NCBI GenBank assembly: GCA_965208615.1
Contig: CBDBPB010000003.1
Span: 1 to 64,000, forward strand
Reading direction: 5' to 3'
Length of the DNA: 64,000 nucleotides
From: Spirochaetota bacterium
Lineage (GTDB): Bacteria > Spirochaetota > UBA6919 > CBDBPB01
Below the pieces are notes generated by a model. It saw only the letters and a program-made list of their open reading frames with translations. It had not been told where the DNA came from and did not search any database. The position numbers and the translations under genes are program-made. This document shows, piece after piece, positions 1-46,114 of the stretch. Position 1 is the stretch's first letter. Each line of letters starts with the position of its first letter.

Positions 1-7
1 GAATAAT

Positions 8-643
8 ATGATTAAAGTCTGTATAGTAGAAGATGTAAAGCATATTAGAGATAGTTTAAGCTATTTACTTGATACCTCTAAAGAAATAAAAGTAATAGGC
101 TCTTATGACTATGCAGAAAAGCTGGTTGATAAATTAAATAATTCATTGGTTCATCCGCATATAGTTCTAATGGATATAAAGCTTCCTGGCATAAGCGGTA
201 TAGAGTGTACCAGTATAATTAAAAAGCTTTTTCCATCAATAGAAATAATGATGTTGACCGTATTCGAAGACGAAGAAAAAGTATTTGACTCTATAAAAGC
301 AGGTGCAACAGGATATATACTAAAAGATACTCCCAAACATGGTCTAATAAAAGAAATTATAGAGTTAAGAAAAGGTGGTTCTCCAATAACTCCAAGAATT
401 GCTAGGAAAATATTTCATGAACTTAAAGGAAGCTCAACTAATAACTTGGAATATAAATTATCCAATAGAGAAAAAGAAATACTAAAACATATTATAACTG
501 GAGAAACTTATCAGGATATAGCCGATTCAATAAATATAAGTCCCAATACTGTAAGAAAGCATATACAAAATATTTATCAAAAACTTCATGTATCCTCTAA
601 GGCAGAGGTAGTCGCCAAAGCCATTAACGAAAAATTAGTATAA
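8..643 (+). CDS. NarL/LuxR-family response regulator (REC + LuxR HTH)
   Basis: IVEDV...VLMDIKLPGISGIE receiver motifs; C-terminal LSNREKEIL...ISPNTVRKHIQNIYQKLHV HTH. Confidence 0.95.
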   Translation: MIKVCIVEDVKHIRDSLSYLLDTSKEIKVIGSYDYAEKLVDKLNNSLVHPHIVLMDIKLPGISGIECTSIIKKLFPSIEIMMLTVFEDEEKVFDSIKAGATGYILKDTPKHGLIKEIIELRKGGSPITPRIARKIFHELKGSSTNNLEYKLSNREKEILKHIITGETYQDIADSINISPNTVRKHIQNIYQKLHVSSKAEVVAKAINEKLV

Positions 644-875
644 TAAAAGATTAATATAGTAAAAGATATATAAGTTAGGGGTTATTATAGTTACTAGTCT
701 ATTTATTATATAGCATAGTAATTGGGGTGATATTTTTGTTCTTTTTGCAATTAAACTAAATTAAAATAAAAAAGAACTAAATAAATTTAAACTTTTTTTG
801 GATAATCTAAGTAATCTAACTTTTTATATATTAGATTACTTTTATAAGCATATTCCCAAAGAGGAGATGATATAT

Positions 876-1931
876 ATGGCACGAGCTGGTGCAACACAAA
901 TGTCGAACAGAGGAGGAAGCACTCCAGGTAAGAGACAGCTTAGTGGAAAACAAAAAGCCGCAATATTTTTAGTAATATTAGGTCCTGAAGTATCCGCTAG
1001 CGTATTTAAGTGTTTAAAAGAAGATGAGATAGAGCAGTTAACCTTTGAGATAGCTAGAATAGATAAAGTTGAACCAGCAGAAAAAGAAAAGGTTTTATCA
1101 GAGTTTCAAGAACTTATGATGGCTCAGGAGTTTATTACATCTGGTGGTATAGACTATGCCCGAGAAGTTTTAGAAAAAGCATTGGGTTCTCAAAAGGCCT
1201 CGGATGTTATTAGTAGGCTGACATCATCTATTCAATCAAGACCTTTTGATTTTGTTAGAAGGACTGATCCAGCTCACCTTTTAAACTTTATACAGTCAGA
1301 GCATCCACAGACAATAGCATTAGTTTTGGCTTATTTAGAGCCGCAAAAGTCATCCATGATATTAAGTGCACTGCCTCAAGAGATCCAGGCAGATGTTGCT
1401 AAGCGAATAGCCACTATGGATAGAACATCTCCTGATGTACTTAGGGAGGTAGAGCGTGTATTAGAGCGAAAGCTGTCCACTCTTGCGAGTGAGGACTACA
1501 CATCAGCAGGAGGTATAGACACTATTGTAGAGGTTCTTAATCTTGTGGATAGAGGGACTGAGCGAAATATAATAGAGGATTTAGAGGATGAGGATCCTGA
1601 GTTGGCCGAGGAAATTAAAAAGCGTATGTTTGTATTTGAGGATATTGTTCTTTTGGATGATAGATCTATACAAAAGGTATTAAGAGAAGTTGATGGTCAA
1701 GAGTTGGCACGAGCCTTAAAAGCGGTTGATAGTGAAGTTCAAGATAAAATATTTAGAAATATGAGTAAGAGGGCATCATCTTTGCTTAAAGAGGATATGG
1801 AGTTTATGGGTCCTATTCGTCTTAAGGATGTGGAAGAGGCACAACAAAAGATAGTTGGTATAATTAGGAAGTTGGAAGAACAAGGTGATATTGTTGTTGC
1901 AAGGCCAGGAGAAGATGAACTGGTAGTATAG
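876..1931 (+). CDS. fliG: Flagellar motor switch protein FliG
   Basis: LSGKQKAAIFL, GGIDYA, EHPQTIAL, MFVFEDI, MGPIRLKDVEEAQ motifs. Start moved to ATG 876, downstream of GAGGAG (861-866). Confidence 0.97.
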   Translation: MARAGATQMSNRGGSTPGKRQLSGKQKAAIFLVILGPEVSASVFKCLKEDEIEQLTFEIARIDKVEPAEKEKVLSEFQELMMAQEFITSGGIDYAREVLEKALGSQKASDVISRLTSSIQSRPFDFVRRTDPAHLLNFIQSEHPQTIALVLAYLEPQKSSMILSALPQEIQADVAKRIATMDRTSPDVLREVERVLERKLSTLASEDYTSAGGIDTIVEVLNLVDRGTERNIIEDLEDEDPELAEEIKKRMFVFEDIVLLDDRSIQKVLREVDGQELARALKAVDSEVQDKIFRNMSKRASSLLKEDMEFMGPIRLKDVEEAQQKIVGIIRKLEEQGDIVVARPGEDELVV

Positions 1932-35415: not shown

Positions 35416-36761
35416 ATGCTAAAACTAGACTGGAATACCTTTGATCAATTTTTAAGAAAAACCTTTCCTAAAGATCAAGAGTTATGGTTAAATTATGTGA
35501 AGTTCTTATCATCGTCGGATAATGAAGTCTTTATATCAGTACCCAATCAACTTTACAAAGAAAGAGTCTATAGTAAATACTATAAAGCTTTAAACCAGCT
35601 ATACAAAAAACAGTTTAATAAAAAACTAAATCTCAATGTTATGATCGGAGAAGAAGAAGATATAATTGTTAAACCTACAAATAATAACCACTTCACACAA
35701 AAAACTAATAATAACTCGAAAATTAATAATAAATTAAAACTAGATATAAAATATACTTTTGATAGCTTTGTAGTAGGTAATAATAGCCTATTAGCTCATG
35801 CCGCTGCCCGAAGGATAGCTAGTGTACCCGGTGAAAATTATAATCCATTTTTTCTATATGGAGGTGTAGGACTAGGTAAAACCCATCTAATGCAGGCTAT
35901 TGGGCATCAGGTTACCATTAAAGAACCCTTTATGGAAGTAATATATGTTACCAGTGAACAGTTCACCAATGAATATATAGTATCACTACAAAAAGGCCAG
36001 GTTCATGCATTTAGACTTAAATATAGAAACGCAGATTATACTTTTAATTGATGACATTCAGTTCTTAGAAAGAAAAGAGGGAATTCAAGAAGAACTTTTT
36101 CATACATTTAATATGCTAAAAGATTCAGGTAAACAAATGGTCTTTACCAGTGATAGATCCCCCAGAGAGCTTAAAACTATTAAGGATAGATTAATATCCC
36201 GTTTTTCATCCGGATTAGTAGCCGATATTAAACCTCCTGACTTAGAAACCAGAGAAGCCATTATCAGAAAGAAAATGATAGAAAATCAAATTGTAATAAA
36301 TAAAGAAATTATTAACTTTTTGGCAACAAATATTACCAATAATGTTAGAGAATTAGAGGCATCGGTTATTAAGCTAAAATCCATTGTAGACCTGCTAAAT
36401 GAAAAATTAACACTAAAACGAGTCGAAGAAGAATTACAGGATATACTAAATTGTAATCTTACAAAAAAACACATTTCTGTTGAACCTATACAAAAAGAAG
36501 TCGCTAACTACTATAATATTAGCTATTCAGATATGAAGTCAAAAAAAAGAACCGATGTTATTGCCAAACCACGTCAAGTTGCAGTTTATCTAACTAAACT
36601 TCTTACTAACTTGTCTACTACCGAAATTGGAAACGAGTTTGGTGGTAGAAATCACTCAACTATTATAGCCTCATGTAAAAAAATAGATAAAGAAACTTAT
36701 ATCAAATGAATCCACCCGTAACGATATTGATCATCTAAAAGCTAAGCTTTTACGTATATAA
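35416..36761 (+). CDS. dnaA: Chromosomal replication initiator DnaA (two apparent +1 frameshifts, near 36038 and 36695)
   Basis: YTFDSFVVG, YNPFFLYGGVGLGKTHL, LLIDDIQF, NVRELE, FGGRNHSTI; removing the extra bases restores one frame ending at TAA 36761. Confidence 0.95.
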
Positions 36762-41881: not shown

Positions 41882-42133
41882 ATAAGGTACCTCCTTAAAA
41901 AAACTAATTTATTAAAACAGTTATAATATAATTACTTTTGGAAATTGTTACTAATTATTCCAAAACTATTTTAAATAGATTTTAGATATATAAAGTAACT
42001 CTTAGAATACCCTTATAATAGCACGGTTAATAACAATATATCTATACAATAAAAGTCTTATTAAAAAGTTAACCTAATTGCTAAAATTTAACTTATATTA
42101 TATTAGTGAATATAATTGTTTAGGAATTATCTA

Positions 42134-42802
42134 ATGAGATCACTAAATGAGATTACTCAATGGCATCCAATATCAATTCAAAAATGGCTTCAAGAAGTAG
42201 ATGAGATCGACCTTATTCTAGTTCTATCCCACTCTTCAGAGGCTGTTAAACATCTTATTTTAGAAAACCTTTCCTCCCGAATCCGTAAGTTGGCTATAGA
42301 TTCTATGGATGATTATGATAAAGTCCCAGAAAGCATTGTCAAAAAAGCAAAAAAAAGAGCGCTTGGCCTAGCTAATGAGCTAATCGAACTCGGAGAACTA
42401 AATGAACCAGGTGAAGAAGAACTATATAAAATAACCAGAAATACTATACTCCCTAAACTACTCCAAACTAATAATACCGCTAACCTTATTAAAACTATGA
42501 CTATACTAGGAGAGTATGCCAAAGAACGAGGACTCCTGGCTCTAGAAGAAGCCTTAATAAAAATTAAAGACCCTTTTTTAAGAGATGCCTTACAGCTTAT
42601 AATCGACGGCACAGAAGCTGACGTTGCAGAAGAAATACTTAGAAATCGTGTAGAGGCTATTACATATCATCGTGAACTATTATATAACTTAATAATCGAA
42701 GGTATATTGGGTATACAAACTGGTAATTCAAGCTGGATATTGCGTATGCGTCTTAAGTCTTACTTACCGCCAGAAATGGGAGGTGAAAATGGACTATATT
42801 AA
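42134..42802 (+). CDS. FliG C-terminal domain fused to a MotA cytoplasmic-like domain
   Basis: SIQKWLQEVD...ILENLSSR resembles FliG SIQKVLREVD...IFRNMSKR; AKERGLLALE..DPFLRDALQLIIDGT and IIEGILGIQTG...LKSYLP resemble MotA. Confidence 0.8.
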   Translation: MRSLNEITQWHPISIQKWLQEVDEIDLILVLSHSSEAVKHLILENLSSRIRKLAIDSMDDYDKVPESIVKKAKKRALGLANELIELGELNEPGEEELYKITRNTILPKLLQTNNTANLIKTMTILGEYAKERGLLALEEALIKIKDPFLRDALQLIIDGTEADVAEEILRNRVEAITYHRELLYNLIIEGILGIQTGNSSWILRMRLKSYLPPEMGGENGLY

Positions 42803-42843: not shown

Positions 42844-43146
42844 ATGTGCCTTGGAATACCCGGAAAGGTTATTGAAATAATAGATGAAAACGGCCTTTTG
42901 ATGGGTAAAATAGATTATAATGGTACCGTAAATAAAGTATGTCTAGCTTATATTCCTAATATAAAAATAGGTCAATATACTATTGTCCATGCAGGTTTTG
43001 CTGTTTCTGTTATAGACGAAGAAGAAGCACAAAAAACCCTTGCTATATGGGATGACTTAAAAGAAAAACTTGCCGCTAGCGAAGGAAGCAATGTTTATGG
43101 ACAACCTTTAAACCGCTCCATTAATAACAAAAAACGGTATAAATAA
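42844..43146 (+). CDS. hypC: Hydrogenase maturation chaperone HypC
   Basis: MCLGIPGKV N-terminus; IVHAGFA...DEEEA. Confidence 0.93.
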   Translation: MCLGIPGKVIEIIDENGLLMGKIDYNGTVNKVCLAYIPNIKIGQYTIVHAGFAVSVIDEEEAQKTLAIWDDLKEKLAASEGSNVYGQPLNRSINNKKRYK

Positions 43147-43230
43147 AAACTTAAAATATTATTTATAATTAAATCGGTTTTTTTATATAAAAACTATCCC
43201 CTTAATGTTAACACTGTTTGAGGAGAAAAT

Positions 43231-44178
43231 ATGGCTGGTAACACTGTATGTATAAATAATGTAGAAATACACTTAAGTCATCCAGATGAGCTTAACATTG
43301 ATTTAGTGGGTTTTTATGAACTTCAAAAACAGCTAAAAGCATGTTGGACAACTTTAAATAATAATGATATTCCCCTTGTACCAAGAATACTAGGACGACC
43401 CGGTGTAGGTAAAACTACCCTTGCCTATTCCGTTGCAAAACAAATGAATTATGAAGTCTATATTTATCAGTGTACTATGGATACAAGACCTGAAGACTTA
43501 ATTATTACTCCCGTATTAAGCAATGATCCTAAAGGCTTTTGGACAAATGCTATTGGAGGTAAAAATAATAAAATAAAATATCATGCTTCTGCACTGGTAA
43601 CCGCTATGATAAAAGGAGGAATAGCCATATTGGATGAAGGTAATCGGATGAGTGAAAAATCATGGGCAAGTCTAGCTCCTCTTTTTGACAATAGACGATA
43701 TGTAGAATCCATAACTGCTGGTATTAAAATTAAGGCTCATCCTAATTTTCGTTGTTGCATAACTATGAATGATGATTCTTCGACTTTTGAGGTTCCAGAG
43801 TATATAATGTCCAGATTACAGCCTCAGATTTATGTTGACTTTCCATCGCGTAATGAAGAAAAAGAAATACTAAAAATTAACCTGCCCTTTGCTGAAGAAG
43901 ACTTAATAAATATAATGAGTGACTTTCTTGCTAATGCCCATAGATTTGAGGAACCCTTTACTAGTAGGGATGGTATTCATATTATTAGGTTTACACGTCG
44001 TCTTATGAATAACCATTCTGAACTATCCCAAGAAAATGCTCTAAAACAATCAATAAGTCAAGTTTTAGGTCAAGATGCTGTTAATTATTTAAATCCTGAC
44101 TATCAGCCTACATTTAATATGCCTTATAAAAAATGGGACTACCCACCGGAAGAAGATGATTTAAATGAATTTATCTGA
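43231..44178 (+). CDS. MoxR/CbbQ-like AAA+ ATPase
   Basis: GRPGVGKT, ILDEGNR, AHPNFR, SRL. Confidence 0.88.
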   Translation: MAGNTVCINNVEIHLSHPDELNIDLVGFYELQKQLKACWTTLNNNDIPLVPRILGRPGVGKTTLAYSVAKQMNYEVYIYQCTMDTRPEDLIITPVLSNDPKGFWTNAIGGKNNKIKYHASALVTAMIKGGIAILDEGNRMSEKSWASLAPLFDNRRYVESITAGIKIKAHPNFRCCITMNDDSSTFEVPEYIMSRLQPQIYVDFPSRNEEKEILKINLPFAEEDLINIMSDFLANAHRFEEPFTSRDGIHIIRFTRRLMNNHSELSQENALKQSISQVLGQDAVNYLNPDYQPTFNMPYKKWDYPPEEDDLNEFI

Positions 44179-46114
44179 TAAGTACTTCAAATTTGATAAT
44201 ATTTATTGTATTCCATCTGTACACGGCTCTATTGACTTTGCTCAACTGGTAAAAGAGGCCTTTTTTGATATTGAACCAGACTGTATAGCAGTAGAACTAC
44301 CAGAATCCATTATGAGCCATGTATTAAAGGGTGTAAAACAGTTACCCTATTTATCAGTCGTATCCTTTTCGGATAACCCTAATGTATATCATTATGTTCC
44401 CATTCACCCTGGAGATTCAATAATAGAAGCTGTACGACTGGCTGTTGAACATCAAACCGAACTATACTTCGTAGATAAAGATGTTGGAGAAATAGATATT
44501 CCCCCTGTTATTGTCCCTGACTCATATTATCTTAGCAAATTAGGGCTAAAAAACTATTGTAATAATTATCTCAAATATATTAAACCCACTGCCTTAAACT
44601 CTATACACTATCTACGAGAAACAGAAATGGCATTTAGGGTTAAAAAGATTTCATCTGCATATAAGCGTATACTATTTGTTTACGGCCTACAACATCATCA
44701 CAGAATATCAGAACTTTTAATGAAACCTTATCCAAGTAATATTTCATATAATACCATCGAAAGGGACCACATTAGTCTAATGTATATAGATAAGTCTATT
44801 TATACAGAAGTATTAGGTAATATGCCTTTTCAAACATATATCTATGAGGTTACCAGAAAAGGACTTTCCACTACAAACCTTGGTATAGATATACCCCCTT
44901 ATGACACTCACCTAGATAGTACTGAAAATCTAAAAAAATCGTTTTACAAAAAAGTTAATGAAAATGCTAACAGACTAAAAAACTTAACTACACAAAATAA
45001 TACCTTTGATCAATATGATAGCCTCCATGAAATATTTATATTAAGTAAAAAGCTGTATAAACGTGAATGGAACGATCAGACATCTATTAATAGGCTTTCT
45101 ACTGCGTTAAAGTTTGCCAGAAATTATGCTTTTGTTAGTGGTAGCCTTGTACCATCCCCTTATCAGCTTATTGTTTCTGCCAAGAATACCATTAACGATG
45201 ACTATGCTTATGAACTATATAGGCTTATATCTTTCTATCCCTTTTTAGATAACCTTTATAACTTGCCTGAGGTTACATTTAATAACAATAAAGCCAATAT
45301 TGATGGGCATGATGTTAAATTAAGACCTTATTTGCCTATGCAACCGTGGACAATAGAAAAAATACCTATTAAAAAGCGTCCTAAAGAAAAAAAGCCTGGT
45401 GATTGGGAAAAGATCTGGAAGTCAGGATATGATTTGGTATCCTATCCAGCTGAGGATATTATTATAGAAAATTATTTTTATTATCTTAGGAGAAAAGCTA
45501 GGTCTATATTAGAAAAAGACCTTATCATCACCAGAGAATTTACAACATCTTTAATGGATGGCCTTGATATTAAAGAAACTATCCGAAACCTACACCTCAA
45601 TAAACTATATGTAAAAGAATGTCTACCCTTTAAAGGAGATGTTGGAACTATTGTTATTATCTTTGATGAAGATGTTGATAATAAATATTCCTTTCATATG
45701 ACATGGTATGCTGAACACCAAAATGAATCTGATCTTGCTCTATACTCAACACCACCAGGTAAAAAACTCATAGGACCCGGTATTAGTCAGGCTGAATATG
45801 GAGGAGTTCTATCTATATACCCTCCAAGGGGTGTAAAAGAAGTATGGTCTGATGAGCGATTTAATAGAGCTAAAACTAAGTCCCAAAAACTCCTTATGGC
45901 TGGGATATATTATTCTGAAAAAAAGTATATTGTTTATGTTTCAAAAATACCTCCTACAATTTACTATCGTTCTTTGGCAGAACAACATGGACATCATATT
46001 TTACACATACCAATTAATCAACTTTCAGATTCTATGATTAAAAAGGTTAAGTTTTTCCACTTTTTAGCGGATAGACGTTTAAGAGGAATTGCTGGAAGGT
46101 ATATTAAAAAGTAA
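44165..46114 (+). CDS. Hypothetical protein coupled to the AAA ATPase (N-terminus TraB/DUF5682-like)
   Basis: Overlaps the ATPase stop; PSVHG..FA, PDCIAVELP, RE.EMA, FVYG..H. Confidence 0.7.
   Translation: MNLSDKYFKFDNIYCIPSVHGSIDFAQLVKEAFFDIEPDCIAVELPESIMSHVLKGVKQLPYLSVVSFSDNPNVYHYVPIHPGDSIIEAVRLAVEHQTELYFVDKDVGEIDIPPVIVPDSYYLSKLGLKNYCNNYLKYIKPTALNSIHYLRETEMAFRVKKISSAYKRILFVYGLQHHHRISELLMKPYPSNISYNTIERDHISLMYIDKSIYTEVLGNMPFQTYIYEVTRKGLSTTNLGIDIPPYDTHLDSTENLKKSFYKKVNENANRLKNLTTQNNTFDQYDSLHEIFILSKKLYKREWNDQTSINRLSTALKFARNYAFVSGSLVPSPYQLIVSAKNTINDDYAYELYRLISFYPFLDNLYNLPEVTFNNNKANIDGHDVKLRPYLPMQPWTIEKIPIKKRPKEKKPGDWEKIWKSGYDLVSYPAEDIIIENYFYYLRRKARSILEKDLIITREFTTSLMDGLDIKETIRNLHLNKLYVKECLPFKGDVGTIVIIFDEDVDNKYSFHMTWYAEHQNESDLALYSTPPGKKLIGPGISQAEYGGVLSIYPPRGVKEVWSDERFNRAKTKSQKLLMAGIYYSEKKYIVYVSKIPPTIYYRSLAEQHGHHILHIPINQLSDSMIKKVKFFHFLADRRLRGIAGRYIKK

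Follow-up and report, generated by a model that had tools for sequence, protein, structure and literature searches.

The locus and its product

The gene described here lies in the window, a 64,000-nucleotide stretch of a contig (CBDBPB010000003.1) from the genome assembly of a Spirochaetota bacterium, and encodes P0001, a protein in which a domain of the flagellar rotor protein FliG is followed by the cytoplasmic head of the stator protein MotA (Table 1). Translation from the ATG at 42134, and not from the upstream TTG at 42116, is indicated by the N-termini (MxSLNEIT) of 12 orthologs, and the gene is present in a single copy in the genome. The candidate promoter agrees with the consensus at 10 of 12 positions, which is weak evidence because 12 such sites occurred against 7.4 +/- 2.7 in shuffles. 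A scan for promoters and terminators around the gene was uninformative, and no shared upstream motif was seen by eye across three loci. As a separate observation, the position of the candidate promoter would favor the ATG over the TTG as the start codon.

Table 1. Coordinates of the P0001 gene, its parts, and related features of the window
Feature	Positions	Strand	Basis or remark
Whole gene, P0001, FliG_C/MotA-head fusion, 222 aa	42134..42802, including stop codon	+	ORF list, translation
FliG C-terminal six-helix domain, residues 1-92	42134..42409	+	Pfam, alignments, superposition
Acidic linker, residues 93-111	42410..42466	+	AF2 pLDDT, BLASTP alignments
MotA cytoplasmic loop TM2-TM3 (torque-generating interface helices), residues 112-176	42467..42661	+	NCBIfam, PDB phmmer, BLASTP, superposition
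MotA C-terminal cytoplasmic tail, residues 177-215, directly after the loop	42662..42778	+	PDB phmmer, BLASTP
Variable disordered C-terminal tail, residues 216-222, and stop	42779..42802	+	pLDDT <50 at 216-222; unconserved in ortholog alignment
Candidate sigma-70-like promoter, TTAACT-17-TATAAT	42088..42116	+	consensus match only
Canonical FliG paralog of the genome, 377 aa	798..1931	+	possible target of the P0001 MotA-head domain

The FliG C-terminal domain that the original prediction placed at the N-terminus was recovered by profile, pairwise, and structural comparison. Residues 4-89 match positions 21-106 of the 108 positions of Pfam FliG_C (E 8.6e-13; 48.9 bits against a cut-off of 23.3), residues 14-97 align by BLASTP with residues 290-375 of the canonical FliG of the same genome (33% identity, E 1e-7), and residues 2-91 superpose on residues 234-323 of FliG 8wo5_B5 with Z 15.9 and an rmsd of 1.3 A. 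In an alignment with the E. coli protein and the genome's own FliG, the first Met of P0001 falls on E. coli M233, the site of the M-F-x-F hinge. Pfam detected neither FliG_N nor FliG_M in P0001, the first 20 positions of FliG_C are absent, and TIGR00207 scores 33.8 bits against a cut-off of 226.7. Thus, P0001 shares with FliG (PF01706; 1qc7, 1lkv, 8wo5, 8umd) the C-terminal helical domain that carries the torque helix, the equivalents of R281 and D288, and a C-terminal tail of the form PGE(D/E)EL, but differs from it in being fused to a MotA head and in missing FliG_N, which binds FliF, FliG_M, which binds FliM, and the first part of FliG_C, so that it cannot be built into the C-ring.

The remainder of the protein had been read as the MotA cytoplasmic loop joined directly to the C-terminal tail, with TM3-4 skipped and the transmembrane helices removed; NCBIfam, phmmer, BLASTP, and superposition all match this half to MotA, and P0001 contains no hydrophobic window of 19 residues. 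Five NCBIfam MotA/MotP/PomA models match residues 108-177 at model positions ~68-137 (best E 1.9e-16), and their scores of 43-60 bits lie far under the equivalog cut-offs of 237-394, as expected for a fragment; Pfam MotA_ExbB gave no match in P0001. In the PDB phmmer search, residues 124-176 correspond to MotA residues 83-135, and residues 169-213 to MotA residues 203-247, of 9lu9_A. By BLASTP, residues 95-176 align with residues 57-135 of the genome's own MotA (29%, E 8e-11) and residues 182-215 with its residues 216-249 (38%, E 1e-5), and therefore MotA residues 136-215, which hold TM3-TM4, and residues 1-56 are missing in P0001. Residues 112-220 superpose on residues 74-258 of MotA 8ucs_C with Z 17.5 and an rmsd of 2.1 A over 109 residues. 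Compared with MotA/PomA (PF01618, PF20560; 6ysf, 8ucs, 8brd, 9lu9), residues 112-215 of P0001 are the same cytoplasmic torque-generating head, of the type that has four helices and lacks the insertion seen in E. coli (terms TGI4 and TGI5 in PMC12505986), whereas all four transmembrane helices are absent, and with them any ion channel, MotB contact, or membrane anchoring.

In the AF2 model, P0001 is all-helical, with a linker region that shows pLDDT <50 at residues 97-101 and no secondary structure at residues 86-114. At the boundary between the first domain and the linker, the motif EPGEEEL (residues 91-97) resembles RPGEDEL in the C-terminal tail of the genome's own FliG, and the linker then leads into sequence that corresponds to the MotA segment immediately following TM2. 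P92 is invariant among the orthologs in this region, and L89, E91, and E94 are nearly so.

Distribution and genomic context

The 12 orthologs are full-length, share a common start, and show 55-65% identity; over both domains, the alignment of the 13 sequences contains 55 invariant columns, and all the reading frames are intact, a pattern of conservation that suggests purifying selection. Among the residues newly fixed in this subfamily are W10, W18, R51, E131-R132 (within an invariant E131-R132-G133), N198, and W201. P0001 is a genuine and conserved protein of the cytoplasm, made up solely of the two surfaces that form the torque-generating contact. It cannot be a subunit of either the rotor or the stator, because the anchoring parts of FliG and the membrane helices are absent, which leaves a MotA head, a FliG C-domain, and P0001 itself as its only possible binding partners.

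Close orthologs are confined to the small class of Spirochaetota to which the window belongs. All 3 genomes of the order carry the P0001-type gene, a more canonical FliGC-MotAc protein of 230 aa occurs in a sister family (1 of the 2 other genomes of the class), and 396 Spirochaetota genomes sampled from other classes showed no P0001-like protein at the thresholds applied. More remotely, a profile search placed P0001 in a large superfamily of soluble FliG_C/MotA-head proteins with 497 representatives at E<=1e-10, for which we found no published description or name in the literature. Our own sub-HMMs find both domains in 127 of 165 mapped proteins, P0001 included. The architectures are many and highly modular: 40 of the 165 have the form FliGC-MotAc-MotAc, 3 carry five MotA heads and one FliG_C per chain, and others are fused to ECF-type sigma-70 domains (P0026, P0050) or to TPR arrays (P0021). 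P0056, of 503 aa, is a natural, membrane-bound counterpart of the engineered MotA-FliG fusion described below. Among 10 superfamily clusters that were looked up, 1 is represented by a Leptospiraceae MAG, and leads from the ESM Atlas point to Thermodesulfobacteriota, Spirochaetota, and Bacillota, along with stand-alone clusters of 108-144 aa. A word-indexed search with one of the alignments was dominated by true FliG.

P0001 has both domains of the other soluble members, with TM3-TM4 cleanly excised as in them, but its subfamily has diverged from the other two-domain members (21-29% identity), with a contact surface that is remodeled and less charged. In phylogenetic trees, the MotA heads of the subfamily group with soluble heads, as sister to P0060 (support 87-88), and not with the genome's own MotA; both the MotA-head and the FliG_C trees are poorly resolved, and real MotAs are interspersed with soluble heads. 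P0001 is not a one-off chimera; it belongs, as a divergent member, to a broad superfamily of soluble proteins.

FliG_C was found in all 5 genomes of the class and FliM in 4 of them, the remaining genome being a MAG of 85% completeness; in other phyla, FliM is likewise present in 5 of 5 genomes that harbor the nearest other clade of FliGC-MotA-head proteins. Every carrier tested by the presence of FliG_C/FliM, a small sample of 10 genomes, thus has flagellar genes, the opposite of the prevalence in non-flagellated genomes that the original prediction regarded as damaging. The genome of the window itself encodes one MotA and two FliG paralogs. No flagellar or chemotaxis genes adjoin the gene in the window or in 5 orthologous loci, and the same is true of 4 loci from the nearest other clade (Gemmatimonadota/Latescibacterota). 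In the window, its neighbors are YwiC-like, metallophosphoesterase, HypC-like, and AAA_5 genes, and the only recurring neighbor in the orthologous loci is a divergent metallophosphoesterase of ~245 aa (L006, L007/L023, L021), which is not adjacent in the window.

Loss and retention of contact residues

Contact residues were compared in E. coli numbering, with the equivalences checked on the K-12 genes, and counted over the 13 sequences of the subfamily. On the FliG side of P0001, R49 corresponds to R281, D56 to D288, S57 to D289, S32 to K264, and P65 to R297; on the MotA side, K130 stands at the position of R90 and E138 at that of E98, and D158 corresponds to D117 of the genome's own MotA, which bears the same number as a B. 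burgdorferi contact residue. Throughout the subfamily, R281 is kept as Arg in 12 of the 13 sequences, D288 as Asp or Glu in 12, and E98 as Glu in 12. By contrast with FliG, K264, D289, and R297 are each kept in none of the 13, and the D289 position is acidic in none; by contrast with MotA, the R90 position is never Arg (Q in nine sequences, E in two, K and N in one each), and the canonical tail motif GDNPR is replaced by an invariant GNSSW. In the numbering of B. burgdorferi and of the genome's own MotA, the latter change turns D232 into Asn and R235 into Trp in 13/13, these being N198 and W201 of P0001. The original prediction, which saw the Arg and the acidic residues of the torque helix and the MotA Glu as apparently retained and the PIRL Arg of FliG as lost, was right about R281, D288, and E98 but wrong about D289; the losses found are those of K264, D289, R297, the MotA R90, and GDNPR.

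On each domain, three of five canonical charged contact residues, about half, are lost in the subfamily. R90 pairs with D289 and E98 with R281 in the contact as described in two studies (PMC7564593; PMC12505986); both members of the first pair are lost and both members of the second are kept, so that loss and retention are matched across the two contact surfaces. W10, W18, and W201 are invariant (13/13). In 125 other soluble FliG_C domains, the six most frequent residues at the positions of W10 and W18 do not include Trp, and the same holds for the W201 position in 218 other MotA heads; Trp at 10 and 18 likewise sets P0001 apart from the other FliG_C domains compared. Pro occupies the R297 position in 7 of the 13 subfamily sequences and in 19 of the 125 other superfamily members. 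The canonical FliG of the genome keeps the equivalents of K264, R281, D288/D289, and R297, and its real MotA those of R90, E98, D232, and R235. Complementarity with the divergent second FliG (C4) was considered and rejected, given that C4 has Asn at the R281 position, where the retained E138 would need Arg. The lost canonical charges could equally mean decay of the interface or another use of it.

One rival explanation, a functionless and drifting fragment of a chimeric gene, can claim the loss of half of the canonical contact charges but is already disfavored and very improbable in the face of 13 intact frames at 55-65% identity, invariant columns that include the newly fixed residues, confident folds of both domains, and the presence of the gene in all 3 genomes of the order.

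Self-docking and possible action at the motor

For the complex between two MotA heads (residues 103-216) and the FliG_C domain (residues 1-95) as partner, structure prediction gave an ipSAE of 0.43 (0.44, 0.42, and 0.43 in separate runs), against 0.00 for the best of 3 controls; the partner was modeled with pLDDT 86-87, and at least 95% of contacts were common to the runs. Among solved complexes, 58 of 80 attain the ipSAE mark, as do 2 of 110 mismatched pairs, and at values up to 0.60 only 7 of the 80 solved complexes passed, as did both passing mismatches. The pass is weak, yielded no contacts, and may reflect likeness to a complex already solved, the similar 8ucs. The relative P0018, of the form FliGC-MotAc-MotAc, folds compactly (pLDDT 87, pTM 0.73, from an 18-row alignment), in comparison with pLDDT 79 and pTM 0.49 for the P0001 monomer, pTM being an indirect readout here. 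Inter-domain covariation across the superfamily was, taken as a whole, not significant (top MI-APC 0.171, against a shuffled maximum of 0.137 +/- 0.018 with a top value of 0.195), and 25 contact pairs from the literature had a mean covariation percentile of 55. Among 13 residue pairs compared in 116 proteins by Fisher tests, a single one was prominent, D288 and the tail Arg (OR 7.75, p 3.9e-4); D289-R90 gave an OR of 2.9 and p 0.09. The complex prediction weakly supports self-docking of the P0001 domains.

P0001 probably binds itself or the motor. The reading that we prefer, at a probability of roughly 0.45, is that its FliG_C and MotA-head domains bind between copies, yielding a soluble imitation of the contact between rotor and stator through which stator engagement is modulated. 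The FliG_C of one copy would dock between the MotA heads of neighboring copies, much as real FliG_C is held between two adjacent MotA heads, and the result would be a soluble, self-complementary oligomer. The need for a pair of heads is in line with the FliGC-MotAc-MotAc proteins and the five-head chains of the superfamily. At the motor, such an oligomer might compete through the retained contact of the E98-R281 type, holding or masking free stator heads or capping rotor FliG, and the number of engaged stators would be tuned, with P0001 as a clutch, brake, or stator-holding factor.

A simpler proposal, the decoy of the original prediction, dispenses with self-association: P0001 would be a two-faced decoy, a monomer whose FliG_C plugs the clefts of the MotA pentamer, or whose MotA head caps rotor FliG, or both, blocking torque. 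[quoted passage not shown] Real FliG_C, however, needs two adjacent MotA heads, which makes a single isolated head a poor binder of FliG; and the losses of K264, D289, and R297 on the FliG side, and of R90 and both GDNPR charges on the MotA side, affect charges that the real partners keep, so the mismatch is with the motor and not between the halves of P0001 itself. We consider the decoy unlikely. A module co-opted away from torque control appears no easier to favor: here, a self-associating or signal-coupling pair may report the status of the motor or stators, or have no link to motility, with the bare form serving in regulation or as a scaffold. The sigma-factor (P0026, P0050) and TPR (P0021) fusions, the modular architectures, and the position of every examined locus away from flagellar genes accord with it, but the flagellar genes of all the carriers tested, few as these 10 genomes are, and the derivation of both domains from two motor surfaces that they still closely resemble speak against it.

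Less likely still is a permanent accessory part of the periplasmic-flagellum motor in this lineage, an extra cytoplasmic density that would bridge stator heads and C-ring without regulating them. Spirochaete motors have many lineage-specific parts, the in situ structure of the B. burgdorferi motor has unassigned densities beside the stator base according to its description (bioRxiv 10.64898/2026.10.14.759253), and the gene is found in 3 of 3 genomes of the order, with the more canonical form in 1 of the 2 other genomes of the class. At the thresholds used, however, none of the 396 Spirochaetota genomes sampled from other classes yielded a similar protein; such a part therefore cannot explain the Borrelia density, and the gene lies outside flagellar operons.

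The preferred reading, that of an intermolecular mimic of the rotor-stator contact, can be extended to the whole superfamily, although we hold this extension to be doubtful. Its members might assemble, free of any membrane, into rings or chains in which their own FliG_C domains occupy the clefts of the stator heads, and might serve bacteria as a novel type of sensor or regulator of the motor that trades places with genuine stators and rotors and thereby sets how many stators are engaged; the sigma-factor and TPR fusions would couple the state of the motor to gene expression, and the interface of the window's subfamily would have been rebuilt from salt bridges to Trp contacts, in a tighter, self-locked form.

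The contact between FliG and MotA is the site of flagellar torque; it is weak and transient and has been captured structurally only by an engineered MotA-FliG fusion. EpsE and YcgR-type PilZ proteins are motor regulators at the stator-rotor interface. So is FlgX of Campylobacter, as described in PMC11725899 and PMC6686046, and FapA of B. burgdorferi is presented in bioRxiv 10.64898/2026.10.14.759253 as a multidomain clutch protein that masks the same MotA surface, its D5 domain binding the MotA base. Homology of P0001 to FapA was rejected because the folds differ, FapA having, by that description, ferredoxin-like, beta-sandwich, and beta-solenoid domains. P0001 has no recognized relation in sequence or fold to FapA, FlgX, EpsE, or YcgR, and none of these is known to be assembled from duplicates of surfaces of the motor itself. 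A close counterpart of P0001 in design is the engineered MotA(1-262)-linker-FliG(239-333) fusion solved as PDB 8ucs (Johnson et al., preprint PMC11302681), which likewise tethers a FliG C-domain to MotA and in which FliG sits in the cleft between heads; the engineered protein, however, keeps the whole membrane stator and MotB and has FliG_C after MotA, whereas P0001 has FliG_C first, has its membrane part deleted, and is natural and conserved.

Natural soluble proteins that carry both surfaces would provide biophysics with a ready-made, membrane-free model of the interface, and the loss of R90-D289 together with the retention of E98-R281 amounts to a natural experiment on the contacts that suffice for binding. 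If these proteins act on motors, they would be a class of regulators that copy the motor's own parts, unlike EpsE, YcgR, FlgX, and FapA. The breadth of the superfamily, with its 497 representative clusters and its fusions to sigma-factor and TPR domains, suggests a hitherto unrecognized layer of motility control or motor-linked signaling.

Domain content of the FliG_C/MotA-head fusion

The gene for P0001, the soluble FliG_C/MotA-head fusion, lies in a window of ~30% G+C and, when read from the ATG at 42134, encodes 222 residues; this start was chosen because the MxSLNEIT N-termini common to all 12 orthologues agree with it. The sole Pfam family detected was FliG_C (residues 4–89; profile positions 21–106 of 108; E = 8.6e-13). 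Residues 5–89 also matched the NCBIfam FliG model TIGR00207, and residues 108–177 matched five NCBIfam MotA/MotP/PomA models (positions ~68–137; best E = 1.9e-16), all with scores far under the equivalog cut-offs, as would be expected for fragments. A PDB sequence search returned 25 chains at E ≤ 1, and all 19 with E ≤ 0.19 were MotA/PomA (9) or FliG (10). In these alignments, MotA residues 83–135 pair with P0001 residues 124–176, and residues 203–247 of the MotA chain 9lu9_A pair with residues 169–213, the TM3–TM4 segment between the two stretches being absent. Compared with the proteins of its own genome, P0001 shares 29% identity with MotA residues 57–135 (P0001 95–176; E = 8e-11), 38% with MotA residues 216–249 (P0001 182–215), and 33% with residues 290–375 of the canonical FliG paralogue (P0001 14–97; E = 1e-7). 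A crude hydropathy scan found no membrane segment in P0001.

The AlphaFold2 model (13-row alignment; pLDDT 79, pTM 0.49) is built of helices only, and its linker is disordered near residues 97–101. Using VIA-align, P0001 residues 112–220 were superposed on MotA (8ucs_C, residues 74–258; Z = 17.5, rmsd 2.1 Å over 109 residues) and residues 2–91 on FliG (8wo5_B5, residues 234–323; Z = 15.9, rmsd 1.3 Å); Foldseek recovered the identical families, MotA and FliG, at weak E-values. The original prediction, that a FliG C-terminal domain is fused to a MotA cytoplasmic part stripped of its TM helices, was borne out in full by the Pfam, NCBIfam and PDB matches, the alignments with the genome's own FliG and MotA, and the structure superposition.

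The initial Met of P0001 aligns with M233 of Escherichia coli FliG, at the hinge ahead of the C-terminal helical bundle. Alignment with the E. coli and own FliG showed that FliG_N, FliG_M and the initial part of FliG_C are absent, and residues 1–56 (TM1–TM2 by eye) and 136–215 of the own MotA have no counterpart; P0001 is thus reduced to the pair of surfaces that meet in the motor, with nothing of what anchors FliG to the C-ring or MotA to the membrane.

Relatives and domain architectures

A word-indexed search yielded 12 full-length relatives (55–65% identity, 215–234 aa), all metagenomic, of which two bear names (“Spirochaetota bacterium” and “bacterium”), along with 3 true MotAs. At E ≤ 1e-20, the subfamily profile matched 3 of the 401 sampled Spirochaetota genomes, namely all 3 sampled from the window's order, in a class represented by 5 (3/5). 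The broader two-domain profile, at E ≤ 1e-38, added a fourth class member, which encodes a more canonical 230-aa protein from a sister family that is likely a less-derived cousin of the window's subfamily (see table); the same profile and cutoff gave no match among the 396 sampled Spirochaetota genomes outside the class, in many of which scoring was restricted to 7 first-look candidates.

At E ≤ 1e-3, an exhaustive profile search against 1.84 billion representative sequences recovered 2638 proteins; 497 of them still passed at E ≤ 1e-10 and 4 at E ≤ 1e-30. Scanning a set of 165 soluble FliG_C/MotA-head proteins and relatives with sub-HMMs of both halves distinguished FliGC-MotAc (46, including the 13 of the subfamily), FliGC-MotAc-MotAc (40), MotAc-FliGC (33), MotAc-MotAc (24, including 4 true MotAs matched in two pieces), five MotA heads with one FliG_C (3), and further combinations in smaller numbers. 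Hydrophobic windows were present in 15 mapped proteins, with a MotA-like set only in P0014–16, P0056 and P0139. Among 20 members chosen for Pfam annotation, FliG_C was detected in all, a weak MotA_ExbB match in 6, ECF sigma-70 domains in 2 (P0026 and P0050), and TPR arrays in 1 (P0021).

Several individual architectures stand out. P0026 (558 aa) and P0050 (404 aa) are ECF-type sigma-70 factors with a C-terminal FliG_C and one or two MotA heads, which hints at motor parts coupled to transcription. In P0021 (1699 aa), P0031 (1059 aa) and P0057 (894 aa), five tandem heads, the number in the MotA pentamer, precede one FliG_C in a single chain; P0021 also carries TPR repeats and a FliG_M match. The metagenomic P0056 (503 aa; 5 sequences in its 90% cluster, on contigs of at most 68 kb) is a true four-TM membrane MotA with FliG_C fused at its C-terminus, a natural equivalent of the MotA-FliG fusion engineered for PDB 8ucs.

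Contact residues and predicted assembly

Unless stated otherwise, contact residues are numbered as in E. coli, verified on the K-12 genes, with counts over the 13 subfamily sequences. According to PMC7564593 and PMC12505986, the primary rotor-stator pairs are R90-D289 and E98-R281. In the subfamily, the former is lost on both sides (R90 position: Q in 9, E in 2, K and N in 1 each; D289 position: S/A/F, acidic in 0/13) and the latter retained on both (E98 in 12/13; R281 in 12/13). D288 is D/E in 12/13, the K264 position is P/S/G/A (basic in 0/13), and the R297 position is P/S/A (Arg in 0/13). P0001 residue D158, which aligns with own-MotA D117, is retained in 13/13. The GDNPR tail motif, which supplies D232 and R235 of the own MotA, has become GNSSW, and P0001 residues N198 and W201 are found in 13/13. 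The FapA preprint (bioRxiv 10.64898/2026.10.14.759253) gives Arg89, Asp97, Asp117, Asp232 and Arg235 as C-ring contacts of Borrelia burgdorferi MotA, to which R89, E97, D117, D232 and R235 of the own MotA correspond by number. The own FliG retains equivalents of K264, R281, D288/D289 and R297, and the own MotA those of R90, E98, D232 and R235. Other soluble superfamily members mostly retain the canonical contact residues (R90 in 162/218 and E98 in 153/218 heads; D/E at D289 in 96/125 and R281 in 107/125 FliG_C domains). Residues 10, 18 and 201 of P0001 are Trp throughout the subfamily, whereas mostly aliphatic or other residues occupy these sites in the other members compared.

On the simplest reading of these alignments, the two domains of P0001 would bind one another and for that reason have changed in concert. 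We tentatively propose, with a probability of about 0.45, that P0001 is a self-complementary mimic of the interface that would modulate stator engagement. Tests for co-adaptation across the superfamily weigh against this: inter-domain covariation was not significant overall (maximum MI-APC 0.171; maxima after shuffling 0.137 ± 0.018, top 0.195), and 25 literature contact pairs averaged the 55th percentile, with two at the 99.8th. Of 13 residue pairs put to Fisher tests over 116 proteins, the pair of D288 and the tail Arg alone stood out (OR 7.75, p = 3.9e-4; D289-R90, OR 2.9, p = 0.09), and the MotA-head and FliG_C trees were poorly resolved. The alternative that P0001 is a plain decoy, presenting the retained E98-R281 surfaces but with R90-D289 gone, is considered unlikely.

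In the engineered fusion (PDB 8ucs, PMC11302681), FliG_C is gripped by two adjacent MotA heads, which fits the frequent FliGC-MotAc-MotAc form and the five-head chains and implies that one-head proteins such as P0001 assemble between copies. The contrast between the model of the three-domain relative P0018 (18-row alignment; pLDDT 87, pTM 0.73) and that of P0001 alone (pTM 0.49) is consistent with such assembly. A complex of two copies of P0001 residues 103–216 with partner residues 1–95, predicted from the 35-row alignment behind the broader two-domain profile, reached an ipSAE of 0.43 (runs 0.44, 0.42 and 0.43; best of 3 controls 0.00). The pass mark was attained by 58/80 solved complexes and 2/110 mismatched pairs; passes at ≤ 0.60 comprised just 7 of the 80 solved complexes plus both mismatches. 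Partner pLDDT was 86–87, and at least 95% of contacts agreed between runs. The prediction weakly suggests that two P0001 heads and a FliG_C domain may associate; the pass may reflect likeness only, because 8ucs is a like complex.

Genomic setting and possible roles

The genome (2.46 Mb, 9 contigs, 99.4% complete) encodes two FliG paralogues, three full-length FliM paralogues, a single MotA followed by MotB, and P0001 as its only soluble MotA head; three FliM and two FliG against one MotA suggest that several types of switch complex exist. The window's fliG is predicted to encode a protein whose N-terminus reaches ~45 residues beyond that of E. coli FliG, and the gene upstream is a response regulator, not fliF.

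Coordinates of the features discussed
Feature	Location	Strand	Remark
P0001 ORF	window 42116/42134..42802	+	ORF list of window
fliG	window 798-1931	+	canonical paralogue
LuxR-type response regulator	window 2-643	+	Response_reg + GerE
dnaA, first ORF	window 35416-36051	+	Bac_DnaA positions 1-99 (Pfam)
dnaA, second ORF	window 36005-36709	+	Bac_DnaA positions 100-161, DnaA C-terminal HTH
HypC/HupF-like gene, AAA_5 ATPase, 649-aa protein	window 42844-46114	+	in this order; last without Pfam match
Metallophosphoesterase, ~245 aa	L006 5144-5878	-	Metallophos_2
Metallophosphoesterase, ~245 aa	L007 4970-5701	-	Metallophos_2
Metallophosphoesterase, ~245 aa	L021 3074-3823	-	Metallophos_2
Metallophosphoesterase, ~245 aa	L023 572-1306	-	Metallophos_2
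FliGC-MotA-head protein, 230 aa (L013/L020)	G047:C28:6484-7155	-	GDNP and R90 equivalent retained
FliM paralogue	C4:25532-26104		full-length
FliM paralogue	C7:9375-9947		full-length
FliM paralogue	C4:206014-206586		full-length

The HypC/HupF-like gene starts 42 nt downstream of the P0001 gene, and its trio is absent beside the orthologues in L006, L007 and L021. A Metallophos_2 gene lies directly upstream of the orthologue, divergently oriented, in three independent loci and is not adjacent to P0001 in the window. The two dnaA ORFs overlap in different frames, with no long homopolymer seen by eye at the junction, and a frameshift, an assembly error and a pseudogene are each possible explanations of the split.

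FliG_C was found in 5/5 genomes of the window's class, FliM in 4/5 (the exception, G035, is 85% complete), and FliM also in 5/5 genomes with P0102-clade relatives (Gemmatimonadota, Latescibacterota and one uncultured bacterium), a small, non-random sample. No flagellar genes surround the soluble FliG_C/MotA-head loci examined, which counts against a motor link; that P0001 is a motor-independent module is nevertheless doubtful. A fixed part of the motor is less probable still, and a drifting remnant is very improbable.

Neither a soluble MotA head nor a natural FliG-MotA fusion was found described in the full-text literature searched, with subscription journals outside it; the engineered construct of PMC11302681 was the sole match for “MotA-FliG fusion”, and “soluble” and “fusion” do not occur in the MotAB survey PMC12505986. 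P0001 belongs, as a diverged and lineage-restricted member, to a large and apparently undescribed family whose soluble proteins are made from both sides of the torque-generating interface.
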